Shown here: positions 2,522 to 31,364 of the stretch, in pieces
Layout: each line of letters starts with the position of its first letter
Position numbering within the stretch: position 1 is the stretch's first letter
NCBI GenBank assembly: GCA_039817645.1
Contig: JBCBVM010000004.1
Span: forward strand, 45,013-109,012
DNA from: Pseudomonadota bacterium
Lineage (GTDB): Bacteria; Pseudomonadota; Alphaproteobacteria; Rhodobacterales; Rhodobacteraceae
Length of the DNA: 64,000 nucleotides
Direction: 5' to 3'
Position numbers and translations under genes: made by a program
Notes under the pieces: generated by a model
What the model saw: the letters and a program-made list of their open reading frames with translations, nothing else
Told to the model about the DNA's origin: nothing
Databases searched by the model: none

Positions 2522-4003
2522 ATGACAAAGCTGACCGACCTGACCATTGCCGAGGCCCGTGACATGCTGCGCAGCGGCGAGACGACGGCCTTGGCCCTGA
2601 CCGAAGCGCATCTGGAGGCCGTGGAGGCCGCGGGCGCCTTGAACGCCTATGTCCACCACACGCCCGACATCGCCCGCGCACAGGCCAAGGCCGCCGACGC
2701 CCGCATCCAGCGCGGGGACGCACCGGACATGTGCGGCATTCCGGTGGGCATTAAGGATTTGTTCTGTACCAAAGGTGTGCCGTCCCAGGCCGCGTCCCGC
2801 ATCTTGGAAGGGTTCAAGCCGGAATATGAGAGCACCGTCACCGACAAGCTGTTCACGGCGGGCGCGGTGATGTTGGGCAAGCTGAATATGGACGAGTTCG
2901 CCATGGGCTCCTCCAACGAGACGTCGACCTATGGCAACGTGGTCAACCCTTGGCGCGCGGGCAATTCCGATGCGGATCTGACGCCCGGCGGATCGTCCGG
3001 CGGGTCGGCGGCGGCGGTGGCTGCGCGGCTGTGTCTGGGCGCGACAGGCACCGATACCGGCGGATCCATCCGCCAGCCTGCGGCGTTTACCGGCACCGTA
3101 GGGATCAAGCCGACCTATGGCCGTGTCAGCCGCTGGGGCATCGTGGCCTTTGCGTCGTCCCTGGACCAAGCCGGGCCCATGACGCGCAGTGTGCGCGACT
3201 GCGCCATCATGTTGGGCGCCATGGCCGGCCATGACCCAAAGGACAGCACCAGCGCGGACTTGGCCGTGCCCGATTTCGAGGCGATGCTGACCGCGGACAT
3301 CAAGGGCCAGACCATCGGCATTCCCAAGGAATACCGCATGGATGGCATGCCCGAAGAGATCGAGACCCTCTGGCAGGAGGGCATTGCCATGCTGCGCGAT
3401 GCGGGTGCCGAAATCCGCGACATCACCTTGCCCCATACGAAATACGCCCTGCCTGCATATTACGTGATTGCCCCTGCCGAAGCGTCCTCGAACCTGGCAC
3501 GCTATGATGGGGTGCGGTTTGGCCACCGGGCCGAGATTGGGCCAGGGGATGGCATCACCGAGTTGTACGAGAAGACCCGGGCCGAGGGGTTCGGGCCCGA
3601 AGTGCAGCGGCGCGTGATGGTTGGCACCTATGTCCTGTCCGCCGGGTTTTATGATGCCTACTATAACCGAGCACGGCGGGTGCGGGCCTTGATCAAGAAG
3701 GACTTCGAGGATGTGTTCGCCGACGGGATCGACGCGATCCTAACCCCCGCGACCCCCTCCGCCGCTTTTGAGTTGGGGGCGAATTTCTCTCCCATCGAGA
3801 TGTATCTCAACGATGTCTTCACCGTGACCGTGAACTTGGCCGGGTTGCCCGGCATCGCGGTTCCCACGGGCCAGGATCGGCGCGGGTTGCCCATGGGTCT
3901 GCAACTGATCGGCAAACCTTGGGAAGAAGGCGCGTTGATGAATGTGGCACAGTGCCTAGAGGATCGCGCGGGGTTCGTAGCGCGGCCCGACAAATGGTGG
4001 TAA
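2522..4003 (+). CDS. gatA: Glu-tRNA(Gln) amidotransferase subunit A
   Basis: Amidase signature [12 protein letters not shown]...[14 protein letters not shown]. Internal ATG lies 5 nt after the gatC stop. Confidence 0.95.
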
Positions 4004-28173: not shown

Positions 28174-28956
28174 ATGGCAGAATTCGACGCCTTGCGGACC
28201 GGGGCGGTTTCTGGCGCCCGCGCCGCGGAAATCGACGAGGGCCTTCGCGCCCACATGAACAAGGTCTACGGCACGATGTCCGTGGGTATGCTCATCACAT
28301 TCGCCGCCGCTTGGGCCATTTCCGGTCTTGCGGTCACATCCGACCCGGCATTCGCCACCGCACAGCTGCGGGAAGGCGTGTTCCTGACGGATCTGGGTTA
28401 TGCGCTCTACGCCTCGCCGCTTCGCTGGGTCATCATGTTCGCCCCGCTGATCTTCGTGTTCGGCTTCTCGGCGATGATCAACCGCATGTCGGCCGCCACG
28501 GCACAGGTCGTGTTCTACGCGTTCGCTGCCGTCATGGGCCTGTCGATCAGCTCGATCTTCCTGGTGTTCACCGGTGTGTCGATCATCCAGACGTTCCTAG
28601 TGACGTCCATCGCTTTCGCCGCGCTCAGCCTTTACGGCTACACGACGAAGAAGGACCTCAGCGCCATGGGCACGTTCCTGATCATGGGCGTTGTTGGCCT
28701 GATCATTGCGTCCATTGTGAACATCTTCCTGGCCTCCTCGGCCCTGGCCTTCGCGATCTCTGCGATTGGTGTTCTGATCTTCGCGGGTCTCACGGCCTAC
28801 GATACGCAATCGATCAAAAACGAGTATGTGGCCCACGCTGTCCATGGCGATCAGGAATGGTTGGGCAAGTCCGCAATCATGGGGGCGCTGCGCCTGTATC
28901 TGGACTTCATCAACATGTTCATGTTCCTGCTGCAGTTCCTCGGCAATCGCGAGTAA
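28174..28956 (+). CDS. Bax inhibitor-1/YccA family membrane protein
   Basis: MNKVYGTMSVGMLITFAAAW and seven hydrophobic segments. GGAGGAG SD. Confidence 0.85.
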   Translation: MAEFDALRTGAVSGARAAEIDEGLRAHMNKVYGTMSVGMLITFAAAWAISGLAVTSDPAFATAQLREGVFLTDLGYALYASPLRWVIMFAPLIFVFGFSAMINRMSAATAQVVFYAFAAVMGLSISSIFLVFTGVSIIQTFLVTSIAFAALSLYGYTTKKDLSAMGTFLIMGVVGLIIASIVNIFLASSALAFAISAIGVLIFAGLTAYDTQSIKNEYVAHAVHGDQEWLGKSAIMGALRLYLDFINMFMFLLQFLGNRE

Positions 28957-28981
28957 CGCTGGCACTGACCGCACGTTACAG

Positions 28982-29009
28982 GGCCGTCCCACATTGGGGC
29001 GGCCTTTTT
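28982..29009 (+). terminator. putative intrinsic terminator after the BI-1 gene
   Basis: GGCCGTCCC-ACATT-GGGGCGGCC hairpin followed by TTTTT. Confidence 0.45.
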
Positions 29010-29111: not shown

Positions 29112-29519
29112 ATGTCCGAGACCGCCCCCCGCCCCGGCCAAGTCGAAGCCCTGAACGTCGCGGGCGCCCCGCTTGAGCCGTGCTCCATGGACCCGGTCAC
29201 CGGCTTTTTCCGCGACGGCTGCTGCAACACCGGCCCCATGGACGCAGGTCAACACACTGTCTGTGCCGTTATGACGGCCGAGTTTCTGGCCCATTCCAAA
29301 TACATGGGCAACGATCTTAGCACGCCCCGACCCGAATACCGCTTTCCCGGCCTAACCCCCGGAGATCAGTGGTGTCTTTGCGCCGCGCGCTTCCTTCAGG
29401 CCCATGAAGAAGGCTTCGCCCCCAAAGTCAGGTTGGCAGCAACCCACCAGCGCGCCCTCGACGTGGTGCCCCTGGAAATCCTGCAAGCCCACGCCCTCGA
29501 CCGGTCGCTGCCGGAGTAA
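29112..29519 (+). CDS. DUF2237 family protein
   Basis: Cys-rich small protein (GFFRDGCCNTGPMD...CLCAARF). GAGGGAG SD. Confidence 0.6.
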   Translation: MSETAPRPGQVEALNVAGAPLEPCSMDPVTGFFRDGCCNTGPMDAGQHTVCAVMTAEFLAHSKYMGNDLSTPRPEYRFPGLTPGDQWCLCAARFLQAHEEGFAPKVRLAATHQRALDVVPLEILQAHALDRSLPE

Positions 29520-29612
29520 GGATTTCCGCAGCCGACCTGCAAAACAGTTGACCCAGAGACACCCGCTGGTCACCCTACGTCCAGATTTCATTGTGCAATT
29601 GGACTCGGCGCC

Positions 29613-31364
29613 ATGGCGCTTAAACTCGATGTCACATCTTCGGACCTAGAGGATGCCGACCTGTCTCGTCTGGTCGCCCTTTTGAACCGTGACATCAATG
29701 AAGCCAACGGGTTATCCGCCACGCGCCCCACACGCCCACCCCAACAAGGCGACCGCGCGGTGGAGCTTTTGCTGGACCCCACTCTCTGGATCGAACTGGG
29801 CCAATCCGCCGCCGTGACCGCCTTGGTGCAGACCCTCAAAGCCTATGTGGAGCGGGAGCCGAAAGCCACGTTCGAGATGCAGTGGGAGAATGGCGACGCC
29901 CTTTCGTTTAGCGCCACAAATTTTAGTGAAAACAAGGTCTTCGGCTTCCTCAACCGTTTGGTCCCTCACGGTCCGGCCGGGGCCGCGACGCCTTTCACCC
30001 CGCCCCAACCGGTGGCAGACGTCGCGCCTATCGCGCCCCCGCGCAATGGCTTAGCTACGGCCGAAGGTGGTCGCAAGGTCGCCATCGTCATCGGCGTGAA
30101 CCGCTTCGACGACCCAGAATTGGAGGATCTTGCCTTTGCCAAGAACGATGCCACCGCCCTCCACAACCTCCTCCAGGGGGAAACGGGGGAGCCGTTCGAT
30201 CAGGTCACGCTCATCACCGGCGGCAGCCACGCCGACGCCCTGACCACCATCGACGAGGTGGCCAACACCACCCGCCGCGATGACCTACTCATGGTGTACT
30301 ACGCGGGTCACGGTTTGGTGCGCAACCAACGGTTGCACCTGGCTTTTCCCGACACCCGCGCGACGCTCGTACAGTCCACCGCCATGAAATACGCCAATCT
30401 GCGCGACGTGGTTGAAGGCGCCCAGGCCCGGGCGCGGCTGGTCATCTTGGATTGCTGCTATGCCGGCGCCGTGGGCGAAGACGCGCCCCGCTCTGCCCTG
30501 GGTGAACAGATGCGGCAGGAGTTGGGATCCGCCAGTCGCACCCTGGTTTTGACATCGGCCACAAGTACCCAAGTGGCGCGAGAGGCGCCGGATTACGGCC
30601 ACGGCGTCTTTACCAAACACCTGCTTGACGGGTTGCGCGGTGAGGCGGACCGCGGCGGCGACGGCGAAGTGGATACGCGGGAATTGTTCGACTTCCTCGA
30701 AGACCGAATGCTGGCCGAAGACCTGCAAAAGCCGCAGAAGTTCAACTTCTCTGGCGTGCGCCCCGTGGCGTTGCGCAAGACGGGTCAGCATCCGCATAGG
30801 GAACGCGCGCGCGACTTGGCGCGCCAGGTCAGCGCGCTGTACCATGAGGAGGAGGCCCTCACCCGCGCGCAACGGGACAGCCTCTTTGCCCTTTTGGACA
30901 AGGACTTGACCCAGATGTCCCCATTGGAACGGGACCGGTTCCGCCTATTGGAAACGCATCTGGCCGGGGACTTTCGGGTTGGCCGGTTCTTCGACGCGTG
31001 GGAGGCCATGGCCGCAGGCCACCCCCCGCCGCGCACCCCCGCCAAAGCGCCGGGCCGAAACCGTCCCGAGACAGCGGGCGCATCGGAACGGTTCGGACGG
31101 ATGATTGGCAGGGCCGCAGGTGCCGCCACTGCCGCCGCGAAGCCCAAGGATAGCAAAGGCCACGGGCAGACGCGGACATCTGCAACGCAGGCGACGGGGG
31201 CCGTCACAAACGGCGGCACACGCACGGGGCCCTGGCACGCCGATACGCGGGTGAAGACCCGCCCCCGCCCAAGCCGCGTGCGCAAATTTCTGCGTCTCGT
31301 CCTCTATCTGGTGGGTTTGGGCATCATGGGGTTCCTTGCCCTTGTGGTCCTAAGCAATTTGTAA
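29613..31364 (+). CDS. caspase-like (peptidase C14) domain protein with unassigned N-terminal domain and C-terminal transmembrane tail
   Basis: Caspase His/Cys dyad contexts: LLMVYYAGHG and LVILDCCYAG. About 150-aa N-terminal domain of unknown family. C-terminal hydrophobic helix FLRLVLYLVGLGIMGFLALVVL. Confidence 0.8.
   Translation: MALKLDVTSSDLEDADLSRLVALLNRDINEANGLSATRPTRPPQQGDRAVELLLDPTLWIELGQSAAVTALVQTLKAYVEREPKATFEMQWENGDALSFSATNFSENKVFGFLNRLVPHGPAGAATPFTPPQPVADVAPIAPPRNGLATAEGGRKVAIVIGVNRFDDPELEDLAFAKNDATALHNLLQGETGEPFDQVTLITGGSHADALTTIDEVANTTRRDDLLMVYYAGHGLVRNQRLHLAFPDTRATLVQSTAMKYANLRDVVEGAQARARLVILDCCYAGAVGEDAPRSALGEQMRQELGSASRTLVLTSATSTQVAREAPDYGHGVFTKHLLDGLRGEADRGGDGEVDTRELFDFLEDRMLAEDLQKPQKFNFSGVRPVALRKTGQHPHRERARDLARQVSALYHEEEALTRAQRDSLFALLDKDLTQMSPLERDRFRLLETHLAGDFRVGRFFDAWEAMAAGHPPPRTPAKAPGRNRPETAGASERFGRMIGRAAGAATAAAKPKDSKGHGQTRTSATQATGAVTNGGTRTGPWHADTRVKTRPRPSRVRKFLRLVLYLVGLGIMGFLALVVLSNL

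Follow-up and report, generated by a model that had tools for sequence, protein, structure and literature searches.

The window analysed here is a 64,000-nucleotide stretch of a Rhodobacteraceae genome (GenBank assembly GCA_039817645.1, contig JBCBVM010000004.1, positions 45,013 to 109,012 of the forward strand). It contains a gene whose predicted product joins a divergent EACC1 domain, a caspase-like protease and a C-terminal membrane anchor in a single polypeptide. Elsewhere, EACC1 and caspase are encoded by a pair of genes that form a known conflict system ('System 4' in Kaur, Burroughs, Iyer & Aravind, eLife 2020, PMC7159879). The gene in the window belongs to this system functionally and evolutionarily. 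It fails one defining feature, the two separate genes, and is atypical in its central helix and its loop. It probably represents a single-chain form of the module, in which the tethered caspase cuts EACC1 and the C-terminal half damages the membrane.

The open reading frame (ORF) at 29613..31364 (+) starts with ATG and is a complete coding sequence of 583 aa, with the same initiator Met in the aligned orthologs. The following features were assigned to the locus (pLDDT: predicted local distance difference test, KD: Kyte-Doolittle hydropathy, TM: transmembrane).

29520..29612 (+): leader of 93 bp, within the ~1.9-kb segment missing from close relatives
29613..29966 (+): divergent EACC1 domain, aa 1-118 (profile searches, hhalign, AlphaFold2 model)
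29748..29765 (+): loop motif G46-D-R48-A-V-E51, putative protease cut site between the EACC1 halves (family motif, invariance in orthologs)
29967..30071 (+): Pro/Ala-rich interdomain linker, aa 119-153 (pLDDT 25-30; 28% pairwise identity among orthologs)
30072..30746 (+): caspase (peptidase C14) of the EACC1-associated subtype, aa 154-378 (PF00656, NF047832)
30309-30311 (+): catalytic His233, in the YAGHG motif
30456-30458 (+): catalytic Cys282, identified by analogy with the metacaspase motif D-x-C-H-S-G
30747..31013 (+): conserved four-helix region, aa 379-467 (helices in the model, conservation in orthologs)
31014..31277 (+): disordered Ala/Gly/Arg/Thr/Pro-rich basic linker, aa 468-555 (net charge +11, pLDDT <50, 36% identity among orthologs)
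31278..31361 (+): predicted C-terminal tail anchor, one TM helix behind a basic flank, aa 556-583 (KD 2.73)

Pairwise identity among orthologs was 68% in the EACC1 domain, 82% in the caspase, 70% in the helical region and 28-36% in the linkers. An earlier note on this DNA had reported the ORF and several of its features, all of which proved to be real. Among them was the peptidase C14 core with its His/Cys dyad. Pfam Peptidase_C14 (PF00656) covered residues 154-367 (E=1.6e-15), and the NCBIfam model NF047832, 'caspase, EACC1-associated type', scored 159.2 bits at a cutoff of 140. The motifs YAGHG (His233) and DCCYAG (Cys281/Cys282) were invariant in all eight aligned relatives. In a Foldseek search, the solved folds nearest to the caspase domain were GSU0716, MALT1, metacaspases and caspases (E=1e-6 to 4e-8), and a sequence search of the PDB with the full 583-aa protein gave no match. 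PADLOC recognised the protein by its generic 'caspase' model only, and the neighbouring genes had no PADLOC matches. Placing the protease in the world of prokaryotic conflict and programmed cell death, as had been done from the start, was correct.

The NCBIfam label of the core pointed to EACC1 as the candidate for the N-terminal domain. At curated thresholds, neither Pfam nor NCBIfam offered a family for residues 1-150; the earlier statement that this region resembles no family holds at that level, whereas profile evidence identifies it as EACC1. The sub-threshold Pfam EACC1 (PF19953) match of the N-terminus covered almost the whole profile, and the fused orthologs scored 16-17.5 bits (cutoff 23.6). 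Alignment of six fused N-termini with four standalone EACC1 proteins by hhalign covered 106 columns with 98.5% probability and E=2e-15. With just one Kribbella EACC1 sequence as the counterpart the result was weak (22.7% probability), and the EACC1 signal therefore depends on profiles. A profile built from the fused N-termini only was then scored against 1.84 billion representative proteins at E≤1e-3. It retrieved 154 hits. Nearly all were standalone proteins (118-135 aa) that aligned over their full length, and 124 of the 135 hits that were scanned carried Pfam EACC1 at E≤1e-3. The reciprocal profile, made from those 135 proteins with the window sequence excluded, scored 93.7 bits on the 583-aa ORF, which was its sole match in the 64-kb window. 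A word-indexed homolog search with the N-terminal alignment returned no matches, which reflects a limit of the index.

An AlphaFold2 model of the domain based on a deep alignment (pLDDT 88.7, predicted template modelling score 0.80) displayed a compact alpha+beta topology, b1-a1-b2 / loop / b3-a2-b4-b5-a3. This fits the published picture of an N-terminal fragment whose strand pairs with C-terminal strands around a central helix (Evans et al., bioRxiv preprint 10.1101/2025.11.14.688446). A Foldseek search of the PDB with the model found nothing at E≤1e-3 and only a weak resemblance to ferredoxin-like sandwiches. Taken from these comparisons, the N-terminal domain is assigned as a divergent EACC1.

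This assignment bears on the earlier suggestion of a homotypic adaptor at the N-terminus, and on a reading that extends it, in which an EAD- or Death-like domain recruits the caspase to an unseen partner system elsewhere in the genome. The domain does come from the same family of conflict systems, in which EACC1 is occasionally fused to EAD1 or EAD2 (PMC7159879), and the guess of an effector-associated domain had directed attention to the right body of work. However, the Pfam and NCBIfam scans of the N-terminus contained no EAD family, even with matches up to E≤10 considered, and EACC1 was their only relevant match. The relatives of the domain are standalone EACC1 proteins, EACC1 is the protease substrate and latent pore-forming toxin in the characterised system, and the 64-kb window contains no second EACC1 or caspase ORF. 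We regard an adaptor function as very improbable. Since the N-terminal domain is assigned as EACC1, the partner that had seemed to be missing is fused into the same chain.

Between the two halves of EACC1, the family alignment contains the loop motif G-x-[KR]-G-[DE] (G 84%, K/R 99%, G 84%, D/E 71%). The loop G46-D-R48-A-V-E51 of the window protein falls on these columns and keeps the first Gly and the basic residue. G46, R48, A49 and E51 were invariant in all six fused orthologs, and the loop was the lowest-confidence stretch of the domain model. We propose it as the putative cleavage site by comparison with the family, and the putative P1 residue could be either the basic R48 or the acidic E51. 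In the second half of the domain, the small-residue patch G63-Q-S-A-A as well as R81 and G94 are conserved.

Downstream of the caspase, four helices were modelled in the region 379-467 (394-411, 418-428, 437-450 and 456-467; pLDDT 73-88). This region is common to the fused protein and to a relative from a two-gene locus (P0007). When the last 195 aa were scanned with Pfam and NCBIfam, a spurious weak match was the only result, and the helical region is the only candidate for a sensor or oligomerisation module. The long Ala/Pro/basic linker that follows was described correctly in the earlier note. Within its disordered sequence we observed a small conserved island at aa 491-510 (nt about 31083-31142), ERFGRMIGRAAG in the window and [KN][LF]G-x-[KR]-x(3)-[HY]L[KM][AS]G in orthologs; the linker is otherwise unconserved. 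The island could be an amphipathic element for membrane binding or docking. The single TM segment, likewise recognised before, lies at about 559-581 with a 19-residue KD maximum of 2.73 (residues 562-580) and was modelled as a helix of residues 556-582. The basic stretch RPRPSRVRK comes before it and no more than 2-3 residues after it, and a hydrophobic C-terminus was present in all six orthologs. The segment is thus predicted to be a tail anchor that leaves the bulk of the protein in the cytoplasm.

Full-length orthologs (n=6; 52-57% identity) were found only in roseobacters, in the genera Roseobacter, Roseovarius and Ruegeria, and 185,579 species-representative genomes contained a single one. 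The 154 representatives from the exhaustive search included three proteins that were not short: the window's own cluster, P0153 (669 aa) and P0136, which is probably truncated. The closest relatives lacking the N-terminal domain, P0007 and P0008, are encoded directly downstream of a gene for a 122-123-aa protein. These upstream products scored 23.0 and 23.6 bits for EACC1 and were 26-30% identical end to end to the N-terminus of the window protein. The two-gene form was also present at the P0009 locus and at a Streptomyces plasmid locus. The canonical pair is seen in Kribbella, where a Pfam-positive EACC1 gene abuts the caspase gene, and at the Streptomyces locus. The Kribbella locus also harbors tandem EACC1 paralogs (L004:2906-3268, 3641-3997) upstream of one caspase-beta-propeller protein and adjoins DNA methylase genes and a WYL regulator, a typical defence-island context unlike that of the roseobacter loci. 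The plasmid and phage collections searched lacked the fused gene; what they contained were two-gene relatives from actinobacteria and distantly related caspases.

Of the four two-gene loci examined, three are closely spaced: in these (L001:4629-5003, L004:3641-4003, L091:3980-4327) the caspase start follows the EACC1 stop within 0-3 nt in the same frame. This spacing suggests tight translational coupling or occasional readthrough; one stop-codon mutation can therefore create the fusion. The fused gene might accordingly be a decaying accident with a non-functional product, created by the loss of a stop codon. Against this stand the six orthologs from at least three genera, all of which retain the fused form together with its dyad and loop residues. 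Conservation moreover follows the domains (68-82% identity, compared with 28-36% for the linkers), and a dedicated 35-residue linker has evolved. Given this pattern, an accident is hardly credible.

P0153, a metagenomic protein (locus L090), is a second fusion, labelled 'EACC1 (weak)' plus Peptidase_C14 in its source database. Like the window protein, it consists of EACC1, a Pro-rich linker, a caspase, a helical region and a TM part, and it is encoded by a lone gene in an unrelated context. It differs in having several C-terminal TM segments, a normally hydrophobic EACC1 helix and an EACC1 domain that Pfam labels as weak instead of missing it. The post-caspase regions of the two proteins have no detectable similarity. 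P0153 is an independent fusion on the same plan.

The window protein shares with the EACC1–caspase system the two constant components in the same 5′-to-3′ (N-to-C) order, the EACC1-associated caspase subtype, the EACC1 fold with a loop motif in altered form, and the predicted association with membranes. In the accessible text of the two key papers, EACC1 is encoded by separate genes and the proteases are fused to C-terminal sensors (PMC7159879; 10.1101/2025.11.14.688446). Here, both components are covalently linked through 35 residues, and a helical region of ~90 aa plus a tail anchor follow the caspase, in place of any recognisable sensor or effector domain. The accessible text of these papers, architecture tables aside, does not describe EACC1 and caspase in one covalent chain. 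The proposal that the protein is a different membrane-targeted arrangement stands in a limited sense, as TM helices have already been reported in at least 33% of EACC1-system caspases (PMC7159879).

In Ktedonobacter, where the system has been characterised, EACC1 is cleaved by the caspase at a putative Asp49; the N-terminal fragment is inert, and the C-terminal fragment alone is toxic and permeabilises liposomes (10.1101/2025.11.14.688446). The loop motif of the family, which is near-invariant, falls on this position. By analogy, we infer cleavage, pore formation, a trigger and a role in defence or suicide for the 583-aa protein. The tail anchor would hold the whole protein at the cytoplasmic face of the inner membrane. 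A trigger, perhaps sensed by the region 379-467 or consisting in the state of the membrane, would gather the caspase domains, which would then cut the G46-D-R-A-V-E51 loop in cis or in a neighbouring molecule. The 35-residue linker should be long enough for either geometry. Departure of the b1-a1-b2 half, the presumed autoinhibitor, would expose the C-terminal half, which is already at the membrane and might oligomerise and permeabilise it, so that the cell is killed or arrested.

Several observations weigh against this reading. The first 155 residues scored only 12.9 bits on Pfam EACC1 directly, well below the cutoff. In the loop, the second Gly of the family motif is replaced by Ala, one residue is inserted, and Glu is found where most members have Asp, resulting in G-D-R-A-V-E as compared with G-x-K/R-G-D. 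The central helix reached a 19-residue KD maximum of 0.99 (orthologs 1.23-1.50; family 1.88±0.27), which is below 99% of family members. Because this helix is only weakly hydrophobic, the capacity of the domain for membrane insertion may be reduced or changed. One cut alone would leave the presumed toxic half attached to the caspase, which is not so where the two are separate proteins. The Pfam and NCBIfam scans revealed no recognisable sensor domain, and none of the four ortholog contexts examined is an obvious defence island. The full-length structure model had low confidence (pLDDT 60), too low to assess docking of the loop into the active site.

The weak helix, the altered loop, the tethering and the missing sensor keep another explanation alive, in which the protease itself is the effector. 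EACC1 would be a regulatory or sensing pro-domain, the cutting or displacement of which activates the tethered caspase to kill or arrest the cell through cellular substrates. The low hydrophobicity of the helix relative to standalone EACC1 proteins, the changed loop and the tethered fragment are all consistent with such a role. EACC1 was in fact first proposed as a membrane-associated sensor (PMC7159879), and promiscuous prokaryotic caspases have been cited as effectors themselves (PCaspase; 10.1101/2025.11.14.688446). On the other hand, the C-terminal EACC1 fragment alone is toxic and attacks liposomes in the only characterised system, the second EACC1 half, including G63-Q-S-A-A and R81/G94, is conserved in the window protein, and the independent fusion P0153 retains a fully hydrophobic helix. 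We consider an effector protease with an EACC1 pro-domain possible, if unlikely.

More speculatively, the protein could be a minimal, sensor-less one-protein suicide switch. It would do without a dedicated sensor for phage proteins and respond to the membrane's physical state or to local crowding of the anchored chain, as when infection or envelope stress brings about depolarisation or lesions. Self-cleavage would be a single-turnover event, and the weak EACC1 helix an adaptation to pre-positioning at the membrane. This elaboration appears rather doubtful to us.

The single-chain EACC1–caspase reading was also compared with other known systems. In EACC2–caspase systems (Kaur et al., eLife 2021, PMC8195603) an alpha+beta constant component is likewise fused N-terminally to the caspase, and the C-termini are variable and often contain TM segments. 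However, EACC2 is described as a different domain, and the relatives of the window N-terminus are EACC1 proteins (124 of 135). TRADD-N, ECF sigma and DUF1822 are frequent neighbours of EACC2–caspase genes; none of them is found among the genes adjoining the one studied here, the only part of the 64-kb window checked for them. In its logic the proposed mechanism resembles the bacterial gasdermin–protease systems and the eukaryotic caspase–gasdermin pairs, in which a caspase-family protease frees a latent pore-former from an autoinhibitory segment. It differs from them in that EACC1 is a ferredoxin-like domain of ~115 aa without a gasdermin fold, and protease and pro-toxin form one polypeptide. 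No gasdermin gene lies beside the protease, the neighbours being BI-1, DUF2237 and SPFH genes.

The surroundings of the gene comprise the following features.

28174..28956 (+): BI-1/YccA-family gene (Bax1-I, E=1e-59)
28980-29006: strong terminator-like hairpin just after the BI-1 gene
29112..29519 (+): DUF2237 gene, between the BI-1 and caspase genes
31434..32570 (-): SPFH ('slipin') gene, convergent with the caspase gene, start probably ATG 32570
33007..33077 (-): tRNA-like gene (Rfam tRNA, 53 bits)

The earlier note had placed the caspase gene beside a BI-1 gene, which is nearby and not directly adjacent, as the DUF2237 gene and the hairpin intervene; no terminator-like site was found between the DUF2237 and caspase genes. 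The convergent SPFH gene does encode a protein lacking a TM segment (maximum KD 1.24). The SPFH gene is a 'slipin' gene ubiquitous in roseobacters. Litoreibacter arenae, L. janthinus and one further genome have the SPFH and DUF2237 genes as immediate convergent neighbours, with neither a caspase nor a BI-1 gene, and in blastn comparisons with the Litoreibacter loci homology stops at about 29482 and resumes at about 31395. As both genes abut in these relatives, the caspase gene is a 1.9-kb single-gene insertion. A foreign origin was rejected on composition, since the GC content of the gene (0.643) and that of its third codon positions (GC3 0.76) match the host. None of the three close relatives examined has a BI-1 gene at this locus, which makes the placement of BI-1 in the present genome lineage-specific.

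This neighbourhood raises the question whether the protein is a membrane-associated stress or housekeeping protease outside phage defence and suicide, which might act with the FtsH-modulator-like BI-1/YccA and SPFH proteins. Orthologs do reside among metabolic and housekeeping genes, BI-1 and SPFH genes both flank the gene in the window, and EACC1–DnaK fusions have led others to suggest links to general stress (10.1101/2025.11.14.688446). However, no neighbour is conserved across orthologs. The four orthologs examined occupied four unrelated contexts (ABC/TRAP transporters; groES/EL and pgk; SHMT and a LysR gene; a transposase), with no BI-1, DUF2237 or SPFH gene near any of them. The occurrence of adjacent DUF2237 and SPFH genes without caspase or BI-1 in three close relatives and the strong hairpin after the BI-1 gene also argue against a common function, and the sporadic distribution, one ortholog in 185,579 species representatives, is typical of accessory genes. 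We rejected the suggested functional link to BI-1 and SPFH on this neighbourhood evidence, and a housekeeping role overall is improbable. As an observation in its own right, BI-1/YccA and a TM-less SPFH protein, both from families tied to FtsH modulation, are encoded less than 4 kb apart in this genome.

The analysis shows what the domains are, that the dyad is intact, that loop residues are conserved, that the sequence predicts membrane anchoring and that the gene is a standalone insertion.

Two further loci in the window deserve mention. The low-GC tRNA-like gene upstream of the SPFH gene (45% GC), described earlier as a decayed tRNA, matches Rfam tRNA well, but its anticodon loop (CUUUAA) is 6 nt long and it contains the mismatch U1xC72. 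The syntenic genes in three relatives read as tRNA-Lys(UUU), tRNA-Lys(UUU) and tRNA-Ile(UAU) (L092:5531-5604, L093:5520-5593 and L094:5528-5600, respectively) with diverging acceptor stems. The locus looks fast-evolving rather than simply decayed; alternatively, the assembly may have a one-base error within a run of Ts. Two adjacent small ORFs at 35956..36360 (-) and 36443..36811 (-) display signal-like N-termini and extremely acidic Asp/Glu-rich tails, e.g. DEDDDDDDDEDEGGDDEDD, and adjoin a LuxR-type membrane regulator at 35386..35940.

The EACC1–caspase family is already known, and the gene does not define a new class of system; its fused single-chain form is rare. Few protease-effector pairs are as abundant in bacteria as the EACC1–caspase module, the mechanism of which was elucidated only very recently. 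A 583-aa single chain without a bulky sensor is a compact object for structural and biochemical work on how the caspase is held back from its tethered substrate and what minimal signal releases it. The annotation 'caspase family protein' overlooks the fused EACC1 because the domain is below the Pfam threshold. Finally, the system has been reported to be enriched in multicellular actinobacteria, whereas the hosts of the fused form are unicellular marine roseobacters. That the EACC1–caspase system reaches these bacteria weakens its proposed tie to a multicellular habit.

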